In this document: positions 10,110 through 62,095 of the stretch, in pieces
Layout: the number at the start of each line of letters is the position of its first letter
How positions within the stretch are numbered: position 1 is the stretch's first letter
NCBI GenBank assembly: GCA_964433675.1
Contig: CAYSSJ010000004.1
Coordinates: 66,454 to 130,453 of the forward strand
Source of the DNA: an uncultured Candidatus Cloacimonadota bacterium
GTDB taxonomy: Bacteria > Cloacimonadota > Cloacimonadia > Cloacimonadales > TCS61
Direction of reading: 5' to 3'
Length of the DNA stretch: 64,000 nucleotides
Program-made: the position numbers and the translations under genes
Notes under the pieces: generated by a model
Seen by the model: only the letters and a program-made list of their open reading frames with translations
Database searches by the model: none
Told to the model about the DNA's origin: nothing

Positions 10110-10764
10110 GAGAGTGTGAGAAGATGGGAATAGTAACGAAGGATTAAGGATCAAGGACGAAGGAAAGAACCAATATAGTGGCGCAGTTTTTAGTGATGAG
10201 TGATGAGTTTACATGCGAAGAAGATAGAGGATAGAGAGTAGAGGGAAGATTGGAGGTTAGGTGGATAGGAGGATAGGTTTGGAGTGAAAGCACCAAATTT
10301 CCCCGACAAAATAGGCAAGAAGATATCAGGTGAAAAGTAAAAGGGGAGAAGGGAAAGGGAAAAGTAACAAGTGACGAGTAACGAGTGACAAGGAAATCTC
10401 AATGACCGAATGACCGTAACGACTGAACGATTGAACGACTCAACTAATTAACCAATTAACCAATCAACCTCATCTTGCTATTCTTGCACCAACTCACACT
10501 TCGATACGCTCCGGCTTACGCCGAAGCTACTCAGTGTGACAAGCTTCTGATCTCTAAACCCTCAACCCTAAACTTCATCCTTGTCCTCCGTAGCCTCGGC
10601 GAAGGAGGATTGCTTCTCTCGCACCACTTTTCACATTATTAATTCTCTTGGAAAAAACATCATTGACAAATTGCAGCTTCAAGAAAAAGTGGGAAAAAAA
10701 GTAAAAGGAAGTGCATATTGTGATACGAGGACCGATTTGGGGCGTGCAAAAGTTTATAATACGA

Positions 10765-11549: not shown

Positions 11550-11574
11550 GGATGTTGTTGAAGAGGATTAAATG

Positions 11575-11885
11575 TCTGCTACCTGTAGAAATGGCAGGTG
11601 GAGGAAAGTCCGAACACCAGAGGGCAGGATACTTCCTAACCGGAAGCTCCGGCAACGGAGAGATAGCTCCACAGAAACAAACCGCTCCGAGTTTACTCGG
11701 AGTAAGGGTGGAATGGTGGTGTAAGAGACCACCGGATCTCGGTGTGAATCGAGATGCCAGGAAAGCCTTATCCGGTGCAATGCCAAATAGGAAAGCATGG
11801 GTTTGCCCGACCCGTTATGCTTTCGGGTAGGCAGCTACAGTCGGGCGGTGTTGCCGCTCTCGAAAAGAGAATAGCAATATCCGAC
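11575..11885 (+). ncRNA. rnpB: RNase P RNA, bacterial type A (boundaries approximate, plus or minus 25 nt)
   Basis: Conserved blocks ggaggaaagtccg, acagaaa, agggtggaa-ggtg-gtaagagaccacc and aatgccaaatagg, all typical of bacterial RNase P RNA; ORFs 11546-11830(+) and 11568-11798(-) here are spurious. Confidence 0.8.
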
Positions 11886-11980
11886 GTAGATAAATAGACA
11901 TTGGGTTGCTTGTTAGGCAACTTACAGAATTCGGCTTATTATCTTCTTCAACAACACTTCAAGTTAATATAAAGGTTGTT

Positions 11981-30998: not shown

Positions 30999-31075
30999 TG
31001 GTGGGTGATACTAGATTCGAACTAGTGACCTCTACGATGTCAACGTAGCACTCTAACCAACTGAGCTAATCACCC
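30999..31075 (-). tRNA. tRNA-Val (anticodon GAC), CCA encoded
   Basis: Minus strand GGGTGATTAGCTCAGTTGGTTAGAGTGCTACGTTGACATCGTAGAGGTCACTAGTTCGAATCTAGTATCACCCACCA has a 7-bp acceptor stem, anticodon loop TTGACAT and a T-arm GTTCGAATC. Confidence 0.9.
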
Positions 31076-54354: not shown

Positions 54355-54578
54355 ATTGATATTTATTTCGTATCTGCTTGTTTCCAGTCAAGAAAAAGAT
54401 TTGACTGCAGTGGAACAGATAGGCTCCACATGGCAGGCAGGGCAGGCAAAGAAATCCCAAATTCCAAGCACCAAATACCCCCCAGTGAAATATTTCTGAC
54501 GAAATTTCACTGGGCAGGCAAATAAATCTCAAATCCCAAACTACAATGACCAAAACGAAAACCTGCATTTACTAAGTT

Positions 54579-54621
54579 CACACTTCGATACGCTCCGGCT
54601 TCGCCGAAGCTACTCAGTGTG
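54579..54621. repeat. Core imperfect hairpin of interspersed mosaic repeat (copy 2 of 4)
   Basis: cacact-tcgatacgctccg-gcttcg-c-cgaagc-tactc-agtgtg; near-identical copies at 10495-10538, 61515-61554, 61836-61879. Confidence 0.8.
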
Positions 54622-54819
54622 ACAAGCTTATGACCGTTGATCTCTAAACTATCACTCTAAACTGCATATTGCATTATTCATTATACATTGTTCATTTACT
54701 TACATTCTCACCTTCTCCAATCTGCTTACTGCCTACTGCTTACTGTATTCCAATCTTCCTATCTTCCTATCCTCCTAACCTCCTAACCTCCTATCTACTA
54801 CCTTCCACCGTCTATCACC

Positions 54820-57147
54820 TTACTTCAACAGAACCACCCGATGTGTCTGTGTCTCACTACCATTTCTCAGCTTCGCCAGATATATCCCCGAAGCTACCAC
54901 TCTGCCACGATTATCTCTGCCATCCCAGGTGATATGAGTTACAGAATCTTCCGATGGTGACACTTCCAATTTTCGCACTAACTGTCCTTTGATGTTGTAG
55001 AGTTCGATGACGGCATCTTCGTCTATCTGGGGCAGATTAATAGCGAAGGTGGTCTCAGTATTGAACGGATTGGGGAAGTTAGCGAAAGTTACCTCCGGTG
55101 GTAAGATAGCGGGCTCATCGGCGGAGATGGGAGTGATATTAAGTTCGTAGAGGGAGAGGTGGTCTCTATTAACACTGAAAGCATAAACTTCTGGTCCGGT
55201 TTCGAGAAAATGCATATTATTTGTTCCATGTAAGGTCTCATGTCCAAATATGAAACTATCAATTATTCCGTTTGGAGAATCTCCAATATCATAAAGCAAT
55301 TGTATCGGGCGGACAGCTGATGTAGTTATAAACAAAATTCCATCATAATAATCAACGGTATAAGGAGTAATACTTAAACCTGTCTGAATCGAAAACTGTA
55401 CTGTTGGTTCAGTAGGATTTTCTAATGAATAAAAATTATCTATTATTGTATTATAATCTCTATGAAAGAGATAATCATTTACTATCGTTGGAGATGCATG
55501 TGCATGATTAACAAAATTCATATGAGAATTTGCAATAGAAGGATCATTCTCGAACAAACCATCTATTATATAGAGGTTTTGAGTGTTTTGTGGTTCATTT
55601 CGTTCATACAAATAACCATAACCATTATGTATCAAAATCGTATATCCGACCGGATGTTCGAATTCGAATAGCAATTCGGGATTTCGAGGATCACTGATAT
55701 CATATTTTCTTAATATCGAATTTGGGTAATGCCTGTAAATATAAATCGTGTCATCTTCATATTCATCTATACGAATCTTACTATGAACAATCGGTTCTGT
55801 AGATATTTCGGCTAAAAGTTCTACTTCCGGCAAGTTTGATATATCATAAATCTCGACCAATGATTCTGCCATCACAGATAGTATTAGTAAATCATGCTTT
55901 ATGTTTATATGATAATATTCATTTTCATATAATTCGTTATAAATAATTTGAGGATTATGAGGATCCTGTATATCATAAAAATAGACGCCGGCACTTCCAA
56001 AGGTAGTATAATACCAATCAGAATTTATTACAAGATAATGATCATAAAACTTACTGGTACTGGCTAAGGTAGTTGGGTAGTCAAAATGTATTTCTCTAAA
56101 TTCGATTTGCATTTCATCCCTATTCAATTCAAAAACATGGATATAGTCGGTTAAGGTAGCATAGATAATATCTTCATGTACTGTGGGTTGTCTGGGAACT
56201 GGCACATATATGTTAATATGGTCAAGAACTTGTGGATTATAAATATCACTAATATCCAATAATTCTAATCCATTTTGCTTCATTAAGATCAATAAATGAT
56301 CGTCTATATAACTATATTTTCTATAATTGACAGAAAGCGGAAAATCAAATTCATAATGTGTTATATATTGCCAATCTACCGGATCGGTTATATCCCAAAA
56401 TGAGATAGCAAATTGGTTATTTACCATAACAACATCTTCTGAATATCTGGTAAAATAGGTAATGGAAGATGTTGTCGGGTTATGAATATCGGACATATCT
56501 ATCTCATTGAGGTATTGAATATTGTTTATATCGGAAAATTCATAAAAATATAATGTGTTGTTTGGCATACTAATATGTATCGCAATTTCATCGGTTAATT
56601 CGTGTAGTGTCAGGTAGTAAGGTGGTAGCGGCGACTGAGGAAGTGTGGCAACATATTCCAAATCCGGTAAGGTATATAGCTCACTTCCTTCCAGAACATT
56701 ATAGACTTGTAGATAATTTCCGATTTTATAACCGCCAACACCAGTTGATTCAGAGTAACTAAGTTGAATTGCATTTTCGATTATCGGAGTTGAAGGATTA
56801 GATACATTTACTTGATATATAGTACTTGGTTCGGTGACAAAATCAAATTCGGGGTAACTAGGTCCAAATGTGATGATATATAAATAATCCCCGTGTTTCA
56901 CAAATGAATTTGGCACCTTGAAAGGTAAGATTGATAAACATTCCAATGTCCCATTTTCCTGGATTTCGAATATCTGCATAGAACATCTGGTTATTGTGTA
57001 CAAATATGGCTCATCGATTATTATGTGATCATGACTTGAAAAATAAGACTGAGAATAACCGTAGTGATCGATAAGCTCTAACGAAGCTTCTGTAGCTAAC
57101 ACAGGAAGTACTATTATAGTTAGAATTAATATAATAATATTTTTCAT
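54820..57147 (-). CDS. LVIVD-repeat beta-propeller protein with T9SS C-terminal sorting domain (paralog A)
   Basis: Signal peptide; repeated LxIxDISDPxNP-type LVIVD blades; C-terminal FANFPNPFNTETTF...YNIKGQLVRKL...GIYLAKL T9SS CTD. Confidence 0.7.
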   Translation of the reverse strand: MKNIIILILTIIVLPVLATEASLELIDHYGYSQSYFSSHDHIIIDEPYLYTITRCSMQIFEIQENGTLECLSILPFKVPNSFVKHGDYLYIITFGPSYPEFDFVTEPSTIYQVNVSNPSTPIIENAIQLSYSESTGVGGYKIGNYLQVYNVLEGSELYTLPDLEYVATLPQSPLPPYYLTLHELTDEIAIHISMPNNTLYFYEFSDINNIQYLNEIDMSDIHNPTTSSITYFTRYSEDVVMVNNQFAISFWDITDPVDWQYITHYEFDFPLSVNYRKYSYIDDHLLILMKQNGLELLDISDIYNPQVLDHINIYVPVPRQPTVHEDIIYATLTDYIHVFELNRDEMQIEFREIHFDYPTTLASTSKFYDHYLVINSDWYYTTFGSAGVYFYDIQDPHNPQIIYNELYENEYYHINIKHDLLILSVMAESLVEIYDISNLPEVELLAEISTEPIVHSKIRIDEYEDDTIYIYRHYPNSILRKYDISDPRNPELLFEFEHPVGYTILIHNGYGYLYERNEPQNTQNLYIIDGLFENDPSIANSHMNFVNHAHASPTIVNDYLFHRDYNTIIDNFYSLENPTEPTVQFSIQTGLSITPYTVDYYDGILFITTSAVRPIQLLYDIGDSPNGIIDSFIFGHETLHGTNNMHFLETGPEVYAFSVNRDHLSLYELNITPISADEPAILPPEVTFANFPNPFNTETTFAINLPQIDEDAVIELYNIKGQLVRKLEVSPSEDSVTHITWDGRDNRGRVVASGIYLAKLRNGSETQTHRVVLLK

Positions 57148-57219: not shown

Positions 57220-57600
57220 TTATGGTATTTGAGGAGTAGTACCACCACCATGTTGATTAGACGGCCAATAAATATCAAGCTCAATAGTAGATGGATGAAC
57301 TTCTCCAACTGTATAACTATCGTATTTATCTAAAATTAAAATACTCTGATGTGTACTTTTCATTTTAATCTCTGTACCAGGTTCAAGGCTTTCAGCAATT
57401 CTAGTCTCAGTCTCTCTCTCTCCGGGTACTAAAATAAACAATAACTCATTTTCTTCGTCTGGTCTTATTTCCCAAAAAAAGTATTCACCTGAATGAGCAT
57501 CTTCATGTACTTCACCAGTATACTTTATTGTTACTTCTGCCCACAACATTCCGATAGCAAAAAATATCATCAGGACCGTGATTATTATTATCTTTTTCAT
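57220..57600 (-). CDS. Small secreted protein (cassette A partner)
   Basis: Signal peptide MKKIIIITVLMIFFAIGMLWA; C-terminal IYWP..GGG resembles the 60575 paralog. Confidence 0.5.
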   Translation of the reverse strand: MKKIIIITVLMIFFAIGMLWAEVTIKYTGEVHEDAHSGEYFFWEIRPDEENELLFILVPGERETETRIAESLEPGTEIKMKSTHQSILILDKYDSYTVGEVHPSTIELDIYWPSNQHGGGTTPQIP

Positions 57601-57834
57601 TTTCTTTTCCTCCAGTTATTTTTATTTGTGCTCCCTATCTCATCCATTTTATTAGATTTGGAAAAGATAGTACTCCACCTCTCCCCGCGCCGGAGCATTA
57701 CGTAGGGAGAAAGAGCCGGATGTATTTGTTGCGACAGCAGAAATAGAGTCTTCGGAGGAAACTTGCTTTGATGATAATTGTTTCATATCTGACAGCCTTT
57801 CTATTTAAAGGACATATTTCTAAGGACAGAGAGA

Positions 57835-57847
57835 GGGGGGGGGGGGG
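57835..57847. repeat. Homopolymeric G13/C13 tract in conserved upstream region of cassette A
   Basis: 13 consecutive G followed by taaaat, about 235 nt upstream of the 57600 start codon. Confidence 0.9.
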
Positions 57848-58190
57848 TAAAATATTGTTTTACATAGAGATAGCGAATCTGACGCTAATTCTCTTTGCAA
57901 AACAAAAAGTTTGTGAGCAAATCTCAGGATCATCATGCCTCCTTACGATCCTAAAAACTACCCTTTACCTCACGCTCCTTAGCTACGATATTGACATTTT
58001 TCCTTGCGAAATTATAGCATTAATTTTCTAAAACACTTATCTACCTGTCAAGAAAAATCTTATCTTCCAACAAATTCCTATAAATTCCTGCCAATACCTT
58101 GTTTCTAAACCTCTCCCTTGTCCTCCGTAGCCTGTAAGGTGAAGGGGGCTTGCTTCTTCTTCCACCCTCCACTCTCCTCCTTCTATCATC

Positions 58191-60506
58191 TTACTTCAAC
58201 AGCACCACCCGATGTGTCTGTGTCTCACTACCATTTCTCAGTTTCGCCAGATATATCCCCGAAGCTACCACTCTGCCTTTACTATCTCTGCCATCCCAGG
58301 TGATATGTGTTACAGAATCTTCCGATGGTGGAACTTCCAGCTTACGGATCAATTGTCCTTTGATATTATAGAGTTCGATTACGGCATCGTCTTCTATATC
58401 CGGAAGATTGATAGCGAAGGTGGTTTCGGTGTTGAACGGATTGGGGAAGTTGGCGAAAGCCATATCCGGCGGGATTATAGCGGGATCATCGGCGGAGATG
58501 GGAGTGATATTGAGTTCGTAGAGGGAGAGGTGGGAGCGTCCGATATTATACATATAAGTAGTAGAATTAGTTTCGTAGATAAATGAGTAGTTTTGAGAAT
58601 ATTCCTCAAAATAAGTTTCATGTGTAATTGTACCGGTAACTTCACCCGATATGTCATATAAGAAAGTGACACGTGATCCAAGCATTAATGGAGAGGCAAA
58701 TATGATATCTTCATAATACAAATACATATTCAGTGGGTATTCGAGTTGAAAGACGAATTCTGGATTATGGGGGTCTGTTTGTATTTCATATAAGTGCGAT
58801 TCATGATTTGGAGAAAACAAGACTAAGTGGTCCAGGTAGTTGTTCGTGTACAAGTAAACAGTATCATCATAATTACTGAAGCCTGGGATAGCATTTGCCA
58901 GATAAGGCTGATTATCATGCAAACCACCTACTACATGCAGATCTTGGGTTGCTGCATGCTGATGATTGGTTAAGATATAACCATATCCATCGTTTACTAC
59001 AAATCTCGGAGCTGTAAATCCGTCCTCATAAAATAACAGTTCTACAGAATTAGACTCTATTTGGTATTTTCTAATAATTGAATCCGGATAGCGCGTATGC
59101 ACATAAAATACATCATCCACATAAGGATCTGTAACTACTTGTGAAAATATAAAATCCCAAACATCATAAAAGACAATTTGATCGATTAATCCGGGCATGG
59201 TGGGAACTGTGATATCATATATATTTAGATAGAATTCATCCTGATTAAGATCTCCATCTACTTTAGCAATCAGATAGTTATCAAGTATTTTGGGTTGAGA
59301 TAAATCTTTGAATGCTTCTATTTCTATAATAGATGGATTGAGTGGATCAGAGAGATCATACATATAAATACCATAGTAGTCCGAATCAAGAAATATTAAA
59401 TCCATATATTGTCCGGCAAGGCTAGAATTAACAGGGTAAGAAAGATATTCGCCAATGTATTCGAATTCCATAGTACTTTCATTCAGATAAACCTGTAAGA
59501 TACCTTCATCATCATCGGAAGGTATATAAATAGTATTATTAGACTCATTAAATACCCCGCAATTTATGTTCTTATAAAAAAGATCATGATGATCCAGTAT
59601 GACAGGGTCATAGATGTCGGTTATATCGACCAGGTATAGTCCATCTTGGGCATATACTATCATCAGCCAGTTTTCTATTATATCATGCACAGCCCGCCAT
59701 ATCATATCAGAATCCAAAGAAAAACTGCTGAGATAAGTCCAATCTTCGGTATCTGATATATCCCAAAAGGAAAGACAAGTCTGTCCTGCCATCATCAGCA
59801 ATGTATCTCTGATTACGGTGAATTTCCCGGGTAAATGATCACCATGAATGTCCCAGACATCGATGGTGCTTATGAGTTCTAGATTTTCGATATCGGAGTA
59901 ATCATATATATCGATATTGCCATAACCTGGGCTTTGATCAACTGCTATATTATCGGAGATTTCATGTAACTTTACATGATAACCCGGTAGAACAGAAGGT
60001 GGCAGGGAAGTAATATATTCCAGATCGGGTATGGTGTATATATCGCTGGCAAACTGATAACTGCCGGCTTGTAGATATTCGCCTACTATGTTGATAGAAC
60101 GATTGTTCTCAATACTATCATATTCAATGCTATTGATAATTTGCGGATTATGCTTATCAGAGACATCTATCTGATGTAAAGTTAAAGGCGTGGTATATGG
60201 TTTCAAATATGAGCCAACAAAATTGCTGGTAAGCAGATAGATATAATCATCCGCTTTGGTAAAGTATGCAGCACTAACGATAGGTAAGTGCGATAATTTG
60301 GTCAGTTCATCATCGTTACCAATTTCAAAGATAGCAAGCCCTGATACTGTAACAGCATATAAATATGGGTGTTCTACTATCAACCTGTCGTGTGTAGCAC
60401 CAAAGGCTTCTCCAAAATTAATGGATTTGATATGTTCGATATCTATTTCTACGGATACTAAATTGTATGTAAATATTATTAGTATAATTATCCCTATATT
60501 TTTCAT
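58191..60506 (-). CDS. LVIVD-repeat beta-propeller protein with T9SS C-terminal sorting domain (paralog B)
   Basis: Same architecture as paralog A; last 330 nt nearly identical to paralog A at DNA level. Confidence 0.7.
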   Translation of the reverse strand: MKNIGIIILIIFTYNLVSVEIDIEHIKSINFGEAFGATHDRLIVEHPYLYAVTVSGLAIFEIGNDDELTKLSHLPIVSAAYFTKADDYIYLLTSNFVGSYLKPYTTPLTLHQIDVSDKHNPQIINSIEYDSIENNRSINIVGEYLQAGSYQFASDIYTIPDLEYITSLPPSVLPGYHVKLHEISDNIAVDQSPGYGNIDIYDYSDIENLELISTIDVWDIHGDHLPGKFTVIRDTLLMMAGQTCLSFWDISDTEDWTYLSSFSLDSDMIWRAVHDIIENWLMIVYAQDGLYLVDITDIYDPVILDHHDLFYKNINCGVFNESNNTIYIPSDDDEGILQVYLNESTMEFEYIGEYLSYPVNSSLAGQYMDLIFLDSDYYGIYMYDLSDPLNPSIIEIEAFKDLSQPKILDNYLIAKVDGDLNQDEFYLNIYDITVPTMPGLIDQIVFYDVWDFIFSQVVTDPYVDDVFYVHTRYPDSIIRKYQIESNSVELLFYEDGFTAPRFVVNDGYGYILTNHQHAATQDLHVVGGLHDNQPYLANAIPGFSNYDDTVYLYTNNYLDHLVLFSPNHESHLYEIQTDPHNPEFVFQLEYPLNMYLYYEDIIFASPLMLGSRVTFLYDISGEVTGTITHETYFEEYSQNYSFIYETNSTTYMYNIGRSHLSLYELNITPISADDPAIIPPDMAFANFPNPFNTETTFAINLPDIEDDAVIELYNIKGQLIRKLEVPPSEDSVTHITWDGRDSKGRVVASGIYLAKLRNGSETQTHRVVLLK

Positions 60507-60574: not shown

Positions 60575-60991
60575 TCATTCAGGTTCCGGTATAGTTGGAT
60601 CATACTCCTCTGGAGGTTCTCCACCACCACCACCGGGCCAATAGATAACGATCGGATTGCCACTGAAGCCAGGCGGAACATCTTTTGTCCTTAGTATTGT
60701 TTCACCACTTGATGTTGTTGATTCGACTCCTGCACAGGCAGGATATTGAGTAGAGCTGGTTATGTATGTAGTATATGTTCTTGTATCTGGTGCTTGTACA
60801 TCTCCATAAGAACTAGATCGATAGAATGAAAATGGTGGACAAGGTTCTCTATCATATCCAATTTCAACATCATAAGCATTTTGAGTAAAGTGAACTTCTA
60901 CTATTAATTCGAGTGGATATTCAGTATCTGCTTGTAGCATGCCAACAGTACCCATTAGTAAGAGTACTGCGAGAATTATTATCTTTTTCAT
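60575..60991 (-). CDS. Small secreted protein (cassette B partner)
   Basis: Signal peptide MKKIIILAVLLLMGTVGMLQA; Ser/Thr/Tyr-rich; C-terminal IVIYWPGGGGG. Confidence 0.5.
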   Translation of the reverse strand: MKKIIILAVLLLMGTVGMLQADTEYPLELIVEVHFTQNAYDVEIGYDREPCPPFSFYRSSSYGDVQAPDTRTYTTYITSSTQYPACAGVESTTSSGETILRTKDVPPGFSGNPIVIYWPGGGGGEPPEEYDPTIPEPE

Positions 60992-61244
60992 TTTTTATTC
61001 CTCCTAATTTTTTTTTCACCCGTTATTTAATTTTACTCTCACCACAGGCAGGGTGAGAGGATTCCCCCTCGACTTGCGCCGGTAGTGGCAAATCAAATCC
61101 CTCTCTATGCGGGGAATCTTTTCATAGAGAGGTGCGCTCAGGTGAACTTGTTCTTCCCGATATAGAAGATATAATATTTTTTGGAGCGAGTATAGTTTTC
61201 TTGCTTTACTTTGCATCTTTTTATCTGTTTGGCATAGAAGTTGC

Positions 61245-61253
61245 GGGGGGGGG
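61245..61253. repeat. Homopolymeric G9/C9 tract in conserved upstream region of cassette B
   Basis: 9 consecutive G followed by taaaat, about 255 nt upstream of the 60991 start codon. Confidence 0.9.
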
Positions 61254-61974
61254 TAAAATGCCTATAATATAATGAGATAGAGTGAGAGCGCAGACTGCTT
61301 TGGAATATCCATAAATTCGACTAAAGCAACTCAGGAGCATCGTCACCTCCTTGTTTTTCCGCTCCTAAAAACTCTCTTTCTCATTCCCTTAGTTTCGATA
61401 TTGAACTTTTTTCTCATTTATATTATCGAAGCAAGTCTCTATATCTAACTAATATGTGTCAAGAAAAAAACTTTTTTCACCGGAATTTCTTCCTGCTACT
61501 CTTTCGCTATTTCCACTTCGATACGCTCCGGCTTCGCCGAAGCTACTCAGTGTGACAAGCTTATGACCGTTGATCTCTAAACTATCACTCTAAACTGCAT
61601 ATTACTTCTCTTCCAATAAAATTCCATGAGCGATGCGAATAAATTTCTCAATTCATTTCTTGATATTTTTTCGAAAACAAGATGACATCTTGTCCTACGT
61701 TCCATGCTCTTTGCAATAAATTCCGTGAGCGCAGCGAACAAATTCCTACATATTCCTATCAATACCTTCTTCCTAAACTTTCAACCAATTAACCAGTCAA
61801 CTAATCAACTTCATCCTGCTATTCTTGCACCAACTCACACTTCGATACGCTCCGGCTTGCGCCGAAACTACTCAGTGTGACAAGCTTATGACAGTTGATC
61901 TCTAAACTATCACTCTAAACTGCTTCTTACATTGTTCATTATACATTATTCATTCTCAACAGAATCTCTTCCTG

Positions 61975-62070
61975 CTTTTTCTTCCACCTTCCACCTTCTA
62001 TCATCTTATTTCAACATCACCACCCTATGTGTCAGCGTCTCCTTGCCATTTTTCAGTTTCGCCAGATATA
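61975..62070 (-). pseudogene. Degenerate remnant of an LVIVD/T9SS gene 3' end (CTD-encoding fragment only)
   Basis: About 90 percent identity to 58150-58260 over about 95 nt, then abrupt loss of similarity 25 nt before the comM stop codon. Confidence 0.6.
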
Positions 62071-62095
62071 CTCTCTAACCTAACGTCACACGCCT

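Follow-up and report, generated by a model that had tools for sequence, protein, structure and literature searches.

That homopolymers drive the phase variation of paralogous surface-protein genes is well documented, and a leader-peptide variant has been described in S. gallolyticus. In Bordetella pertussis, the homopolymer of fim lies within promoter elements. The same placement is mentioned for the homopolymers of Neisseria porA and opc in PMC7864442. In T. pallidum, the poly-G tracts of the tpr genes and tp0126 lie within the promoter or directly 5' of the start of transcription, act on its initiation, and vary between and within strains (PMC7864442). The adhesin genes M. catarrhalis uspA1 (G(n); PMC7302503) and H. 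influenzae hmw1A (5'-UTR repeats; PMC12721329) carry the repeat upstream of the ORF, and it acts via the mRNA level or via a repeat or G-rich hairpin processed by RNase III (PMC7302503, PMC12721329). In the pil1 locus of S. gallolyticus, GCAGA repeats lie within a 38-aa leader peptide (Danne et al., 2014; PMC3894217). When a change in repeat number shifts the frame, the peptide is extended to a stop in or after a terminator hairpin, and termination is prevented by the ribosome that translates it (PMC3894217).

The locus described here lies in a 64-kb stretch of Candidatus Cloacimonadota DNA (hereafter the window, meaning the whole 64,000 nt analysed). It contains two cassettes, A and B, each a two-gene operon for a small secreted protein and a ~770-aa T9SS-sorted, beta-propeller-like surface protein, and a G/C homopolymer lies upstream of each. 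On comparative evidence, we propose that each tract may be a slippage-prone frame switch in a regulatory leader-peptide gene, giving phase variation coupled to attenuation; we put the chances of this reading at about even. The frame change itself would most likely be a heritable slipped-strand indel. The genes of the cassettes are as follows.

57220..57600, minus strand: A1, 126-aa secreted protein with a signal peptide, without Pfam family
54820..57147, minus strand: A2, 775 aa, FlgD_ig / T9SS C-terminal sorting domain
60575..60991, minus strand: B1, 138-aa secreted protein, without Pfam family
58191..60506, minus strand: B2, 771 aa, FlgD_ig / T9SS sorting domain, paralogue of A2

A2 and B2 share 39% identity overall, and their last ~130 residues are nearly identical. 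Word-indexed protein searches with B2, its N-terminal part, or a three-sequence profile returned very few relatives; an exhaustive profile search gave a family of ~75 full-length representatives. The closest named relative came from a Candidatus Cloacimonetes MAG. The 3' ends of the A2 and B2 genes are 88% identical over ~360 nt. Between a ComM-like gene and cassette B, positions 61973-62082 hold what remains of the 3' end of a gene with a T9SS domain, together with its downstream sequence, 81-83% identical to the A2 and B2 ends. The remnant and the alike 3' ends suggest that recombination or gene conversion may occur among cassettes. A dispersed intergenic repeat of ~90-120 nt (CACTTCGATACGCTCCGGCTTCGCCGAAGCTACTCAGTGTGACAAGCTTATGAC...), with the palindromes GCTTCGGCGAAGC and AAGCTT, is present four times (10440-10617, 54578-54696, 61484-61605, and 61807-61930), namely once near the RNase P RNA gene, once 3' of cassette A, and twice upstream of cassette B; two copies are 100% identical over 90 nt. 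A 40-nt unit (GGGCAGGCAAAGAAATCCCAAATTCCAAGCACCAAATACC) is found twice at 54440-54551, between cassette A and the recG promoter; the units are 72 nt apart and 80% identical, and both lie within a 77-aa ORF without family match.

A homopolymer count over the 64-kb window located G13 at 57835-57847 and G9 at 61245-61253 on the plus strand. No other G/C run in the window exceeds 6 nt, the length of the next longest. From the base composition (G 0.21, C 0.20), ~0.07 runs of at least 9 are expected by chance; two runs at equivalent sites are thus not attributable to chance. Because the minus strand encodes the genes, the sense strand reads these tracts as C13 and C9.

57835..57847, minus strand: C13 tract of cassette A, codons 30-34 of the leader ORF, at the junction of the ORF halves (C7 in the related strain L010)
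61245..61253, minus strand: C9 tract of cassette B (G9 on the plus strand), at the junction of the ORF halves

The coordinates of both runs in the earlier note, and the taaaat that it placed after each, were confirmed in the sequence, as was gagatag near both tracts (57867-57873 and 61274-61280). Its tract-to-gene distance of ~235-255 nt agrees with the measured one: from tract end to start codon, it is 234 nt in A (start codon at 57600) and 253 nt in B (start codon at 60991). It also counted the unequal tract lengths in two paralogues among its arguments for function, which is weak evidence taken alone. Unequal G/C homopolymers at equivalent upstream sites of paralogous surface-protein genes are shared with T. 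pallidum tpr/tp0126, and C or G runs of ~9-15 nt at such paralogous genes with fim and porA/opc.

The same tracts are present on contigs L001, L003, L004, L005, L011, L023, and L024, which come from independent assemblies; hence, they are no single-assembly artefact. The other assemblies of the locus were ENA ERZ27252292, JGI 3300033162, 3300033163, and 3300033171, and Logan SRR12613930. In the consensus sequences of these five, which are 99.99-100% identical to the window over up to 10 kb, C13 and C9 were unchanged. The five assemblies represent one clone and are therefore a weak test of tract stability. A plus-strand ORF across G13 has an identical glycine count on six contigs, which means exactly G13 there. 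This 86-aa ORF was called by gene finders and was rejected as spurious, being neither conserved in cassette B nor matched to a family. The JGI 3300033171 assembly breaks at C13 (L004 ends 12 nt before the tract and L002 begins 10 nt after it), which could be caused by heterogeneity or by poor sequencing of poly-G/C. The sole difference between the window and the JGI 3300033162 assembly over 10,261 nt is a G-to-T change on the plus strand at 57856 (L011 ~5086), within the leader ORF and 9 nt from G13.

The earlier note had reported a reverse-complement TTGACA about 200 nt further upstream of both tracts. On the plus strand, tgtcaagaaaaa is indeed found at 58046-58057 and 61457-61468, 198 and 203 nt from the tracts; on the minus strand, which is the coding strand, it reads as a forward TTTTTCTTGACA.

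58046..58057, minus strand: predicted -35 box TTTTTCTTGACA of cassette A, with TTGACA at 58051-58046
61457..61468, minus strand: predicted -35 box TTTTTCTTGACA of cassette B

The TTGACA box also occurs upstream of recG (54386-54397) and in a third leader copy on contig L009, described below. For the predicted promoter of cassette A, the -10 candidates are ambiguous (GAAAAT at 17 nt or TATAAT at 29 nt). Transcription probably starts near the box. With the likely -35 ~200 nt upstream, the tract lies in a leader of ~460-480 nt and outside the promoter spacer. The suggestion that the tract switches promoter strength thus finds no support in this form, as the tract is outside the sense -35 and -10 elements and their spacer, ~200 nt 3' of TTGACA. 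The locus differs in this respect from T. pallidum, for here a leader ORF contains the tract and the predicted -35 lies ~200 nt 5' of it, and from fim and porA/opc, whose promoter-element placement does not apply to the predicted sense promoter here. A promoter-embedded homopolymer, whose length would set the -35/-10 spacing of a sense or an antisense (plus-strand) promoter, is accordingly very improbable in our judgement. Its antisense form would consist of AGGACA or TTGGCA, N19 including the G run, and then TAAAAT; the plus strand does have TAAAAT after both G runs with -35-like hexamers 19 nt upstream, and L012, a more distant relative introduced below, has TGGTAAAAAT after its G9. However, neither L010 (which has TAAAGC) nor L012 shows a -35, which leaves cassettes A and B as the only candidates for an antisense promoter, and nothing coding or conserved lies downstream on the plus strand, the 86-aa ORF not being conserved in B. 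For the sense strand, the conserved TTGACA is ~200 nt upstream of the tract, and A, L010, B, and L012 share no consistent -35/-10 pair around it. An invertible promoter was also considered and rejected: the orientation is the same in all assemblies, and the flanking AT-rich inverted repeats are weak (17 nt at 76% in A and 9 nt in B around the promoter-to-tract segment).

Between the -35 box and the tract, the leaders contain the following elements.

57977..57994, minus strand: conserved leader block TCAATATCGTAGCTAAGG of cassette A, common to A, L010, B, and L009
61387..61404, minus strand: conserved leader block TCAATATCGAAACTAAGG of cassette B
57922..57957, minus strand: SD hairpin UUUUUAGGAUC/GAUCCUGAGA of cassette A, AGGAGG in the loop, leader AUG at the base of the 3' arm
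61330..61371, minus strand: SD hairpin UUUUUAGGAGC/GCUCCUGAG of cassette B, AGGAGG in the loop, with the leader-ORF AUG
57855..57905, minus strand: strong hairpin of cassette A (-24 kcal/mol), followed by UAUUUUA, directly 5' of the tract and within the leader ORF

Alignment of the A and B leaders showed conservation of the -35 box, the block TCAATATCGnAnCTAAGG, the hairpin, and AUUUUAC(n). The consensus of the SD hairpin is UUUUUAGGA[U/G]C...G[A/C]UCCUGAG, with AGGAGG in the loop and AUG at the 3' base, and cassette A shows a compensatory U:A to G:C change relative to cassette B. The -24 kcal/mol hairpin keeps its stem in L010 via a G:C to A:U double change and is absent in B and L012. An intrinsic terminator directly 5' of the tract was rejected, since it is confined to the A lineage. 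Rfam 15 gave chance-level matches only for both leaders (E at least 0.098, far below the gathering scores). At the gathering threshold, the whole window yielded only RNase P RNA class A at 11560-11953 (256.7 bits) and a tRNA at 31002-31075. A scan of a genome collection with the SD-hairpin pattern gave three chance matches in coding regions (for example, ribosomal protein L18). A looser hairpin pattern, run against a metagenome collection, gave one match, on L009; this collection is incomplete for the organism, because the scan missed the known contigs of A and B.

The AUG of the SD hairpin opens a short leader ORF that runs into the tract. Beyond the tract, a second frame leads to a hairpin, termed P2, upstream of the first gene. 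The two frames are referred to as half 1 and half 2.

57820..57936, minus strand: leader ORF half 1 of cassette A, 38 aa (MMILRFAHKLFVLQRELASDSLSLCKTIFYPPPPSLCP, then stop), stop at 57822-57820
61221..61340, minus strand: leader ORF half 1 of cassette B, 39 aa (MLLSCFSRIYGYSKAVCALTLSHYIIGILPPPATSMPNR, then stop), stop at 61223-61221
57698..57834, minus strand: leader ORF half 2 of cassette A, ending in ASFLRRLYFCCRNKYIRLFLPT and stop, TAA at 57700-57698 in the P2 loop, reached at C14 or C11
61138..61244, minus strand: leader ORF half 2 of cassette B, ending in KKYYIFYIGKNKFT and stop, TGA at 61140-61138, 5 nt 5' of P2, reached at C10 or C7
57678..57712, minus strand: P2 of cassette A, UUUCUCCC / GGGAGAGG, loop containing CUCCGG
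61100..61132, minus strand: P2 of cassette B, CCUCUCUAUG / CAUAGAGAGG, loop AAAAGAUUCCCCG, tail GAUUUGAUUUG

AGGAGG lies 5-7 nt before the leader ATG, the ribosome binding site being weak in L012. In both A and B, codons 30-34 of the 38-39-aa ORF fall within the tract. Half 1 reads the C run as Pro codons and stops 15 nt (A) or 24 nt (B) after the tract, well upstream of P2 (57822-57820 vs. 57712 in A; 61223-61221 vs. 61132 in B). The five leaders A, L010, B, L009, and L012 all have a leader ORF of 37-40 codons; the chance of a 36-41-codon ORF is ~0.035 per leader. In A, L010, B, and L012, the assembled tract length keeps the short ORF at 38-40 codons. The substitutions in half 1 between A and L010 show no coding-type pattern, as judged by eye.

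A frame walk showed that half 2 is without ATG, GTG, or TTG in A, L010, B, and L012, and that its frame is open from tract to P2 in all four. In A, L010, and L012, a stop immediately before the tract closes this frame on its 5' side. In cassette B, the frame already opens 67 nt ahead of the tract, but this stretch contains no in-frame start codon. The chance of an open half 2 is 0.115 for A, 0.086 for B, and 0.051 for L012, or jointly ~5e-4, with these three treated as independent leaders. Because half 2 has no start, the conserved peptide end in A, B, and L012 (see below) needs a frame change within the C run. In silico, the halves are fused by a one-step length change in every case: 13 to 14 in A, 7 to 6 in L010, 9 to 10 in B, and 9 to 8 in L012. 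At C8, the fused frame of L012 ends with a TAA 4 nt before its P2. The sequenced genotypes (A, L010, B, and L012) are all split, and no fused allele is among them. The third frame of cassette B (C8 or C11) is also open, over the 229 nt at 61016-61244, with a stop 24 nt before the B1 ATG; its product of 107-108 aa is unusually long for AT-rich non-coding sequence, and its stop-to-gene spacing resembles that between upstream ORF and gene on L009.

The split layout would also be expected if the long peptide were made by non-heritable recoding, that is, RNA polymerase slippage or ribosomal frameshifting on poly-C that yields a fixed or tuned fraction of it in each cell, possibly in response to the status of EF-P or tRNA-Pro. 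The context CCC-C is known to be prone to +1 shifts. The split-ORF anatomy is equally compatible with recoding, the homopolymer permits perfect re-pairing both ways, and the fact that every sequenced genotype is split fits a design that needs no DNA change. However, the direction of the required shift is not conserved (+1 nt for A and B, -1 nt for L010 and L012), which favours DNA indels over recoding. Moreover, no stimulatory structure or conserved slippery context was found beyond UUUA-C(n), and the tract length differs from 7 to 13 between close strains. We consider recoding unlikely.

P2 folds in six leaders, with differing but fully complementary stems and a UYCCCG-type loop, and the stem covaries among A, B, L012, L033, and L034. 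RNAalifold on a MAFFT alignment of seven leaders predicted no structure; as this alignment was poor, P2 was checked by single-sequence folds and explicit pairing of the arms. A U-rich tail follows P2 in L012 (UUUUCUU) and L034 (GUAUUUUAC); it is weak in B (GAUUUGAUUUG) and absent in A. A terminator scan of the sense strand did not flag P2. Half 2 ends in FYIGKNKFT-stop in B and NFICKNKFT-stop in L012, with KNKFT-stop identical. Over the last ten codons, B and L012 have five synonymous and three non-synonymous differences in the half-2 frame, and no synonymous differences in either of the other two frames. In L034, which is without a tract, a short upstream ORF with a strong SD (MLFIICKNKFV-stop) ends 10 nt before its P2. 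A candidate module thus consists of the peptide F-I-[CG]-K-N-K-F-[TV]-stop, then 4-10 nt, then the covarying hairpin with the UYCCCG loop.

57678-57736 and 61100-61158 in the window, 393-447 in L012, 501-557 in L034, and 83-111 in L033: peptide-end/P2 module, no Rfam match

Downstream of the module, conserved blocks GAGWG..GGGGA and CGGGTGAGAAGGAATG are found. We propose KNKF[TV]-stop with P2 as a candidate for a new cis-regulatory leader in this family of cassettes.

The relatives of the cassettes differ in tract and leader. L010 is a Logan contig (SRR7802691) from a 96%-identical strain that has C7 in place of C13 and a 4-nt deletion just 3' of C7; it diverges from the window by 1.5-1.8% in coding genes and by 10-36% in the leader. 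L012 belongs to a Cloacimonetes MAG (GCA_014384665.1) with the same two-gene cassette, whose large protein is 26% identical to B2. Its C9 lies 287 nt upstream of gene 1 and is preceded by UUUUUACCA. Three leaders that have diverged beyond alignment keep the split layout, with the tract placed at the junction. L009 (7365-7636; JGI Ga0334899_1000014, same sample) carries a third TTTTTCTTGACT box together with the conserved block, the SD hairpin, and a leader ORF (MILRFGYIFFVLDKDSLSFFMSHRPSSYKEVILWSR, then stop), upstream of a 493-aa secreted protein unrelated to A2 and B2. This copy has no C tract, and its 36-aa leader ORF (37 codons with the stop) ends 22 nt before the main ATG. In the seven further cassettes examined (P0015, P0021-P0025), no G/C run of at least 6 is present; hence, the tract is a feature of the A/B/L012 sub-lineage. 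ATTTTAC in L034 was considered as a tract-less homologue of the tract site and rejected, as it aligns elsewhere in the leader. In another organism, three tandem tract-less cassettes (L013 7397-7470 vs. L014, L015, and L016) differ between assemblies at the junction of the small and large genes of the third cassette. A 1-nt indel in CAGGAAGAAG is involved, one assembly has a ~70-nt deletion, and the gene models are 117+782 aa, a fused 888 aa, or 113+754 aa.

A tract could also be a mutational hot spot without present function in a decaying leader ORF, with the split frames as relics. The consensus tract lengths are stable within the clone, the leader evolves fast between strains (10-36% vs. 1.5-1.8% in coding genes), and most related cassettes are without a tract, all of which would be expected from decay. 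Decay does not readily explain why the tract-at-junction layout was retained in three unalignable leaders, why the second frame is open (joint chance ~5e-4) with synonymous change, or why no further G/C run longer than 6 exists in 64 kb. We doubt that the tracts are such relics.

The tract may alternatively act as RNA in a frame-independent manner, as a Rho loading (rut) site, by pairing with the downstream G-rich blocks, or by polyproline stalling. The tract together with its 3' flank is rich in C and poor in G (C/G 15-22 vs. 7-8 in 60 nt) and predicted to be locally unpaired. In whole-leader folds, the C9 of B and L012 pairs with two conserved G blocks at a probability of ~1; however, pairing of poly-C with any G run is expected in silico, the tract of A is mostly unpaired, and that of L010 pairs with a different, upstream partner. 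The tract encodes PPPP in A and PPP in B, but the number of Pro codons among the four tract leaders is 4, 2, 3, and 2 and depends on the frame, and polyproline stalling was rejected as a selected feature on these grounds. An RNA element would also leave the open second frame with its conserved peptide end at P2 unexplained. Taken together, a frame-independent role appears quite unlikely. As in uspA1 and hmw1A, the tract here is upstream of the ORF and in the leader (a transcribed one for hmw), and in those genes length modulates expression after initiation. Unlike here, those genes have no leader-peptide frame, and pairing of the C run with G blocks is predicted here for B and L012 only.

A composite of these readings is conceivable, although we think it distinctly improbable: an undescribed leader-peptide attenuator, formed by the conserved C-terminus and P2, into which a poly-C gate was inserted in one lineage. 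Indels plus polymerase or ribosome slippage would then act on the gate and make surface-protein expression depend both on chance and on translation status (EF-P, tRNA-Pro).

We return to a heritable frame switch in each leader-peptide gene, for which pil1 offers the model. In both systems, a simple repeat lies inside an SD-led leader ORF of ~38 aa, which belongs to the 5' leader of an operon for surface structures; the dominant frame ends before a hairpin is reached, and an out-of-frame change, here made in silico, puts the stop in or next to the hairpin. Given this anatomy, feature by feature, the C runs are proposed as phase-variable frame switches governing P2 read-through. The differences are that pil1 has 22 GCAGA units and here the repeat is a homopolymer of C7-C13; that pil1 encodes sortase pili and here the host is a Gram-negative Cloacimonadota with T9SS cargo; and that here the long frame ends in a cross-genome conserved KNKFT-stop, with P2 as a putative terminator. 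The earlier note's slippage switch is partly supported by comparison, through the tract site, the length difference between strains, and the frame junction, but not by the routes as it wrote them, namely promoter strength or UTR structure.

The switch would operate as follows. Transcription would initiate near the TTGACA box, and ribosomes would load at the perfect, hairpin-displayed AGGAGG-AUG and translate ~30 codons into the poly-C. At C13 or C9, they would stop 15-24 nt past the run, roughly 90-105 nt before P2. After a one-base gain (C14 in A, C10 in B), they would go on through half 2 to its stop, which in A falls within the P2 loop and in B precedes P2 by 5 nt. A ribosome at this stop may keep P2 from forming and thereby alter read-through or translation of the operon. 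The outcome would be an attenuation-like ON/OFF control of the surface-protein operon, with tract lengths that would switch within populations.

The novelty lies in the homopolymer version, the phylum, the T9SS cargo, and the cross-genome conserved C-terminus of the leader peptide. A literature search found no publication that combines Cloacimonetes with phase variation. If the proposal holds, this would be the first contingency locus described in Cloacimonadota, as far as that search shows, and, per the literature found, the second known case of leader-peptide-frame phase variation coupled to attenuation, now with a homopolymer. It would mean that uncultured members of anaerobic communities diversify their T9SS-secreted surface proteins stochastically, plausibly against phage or grazing.
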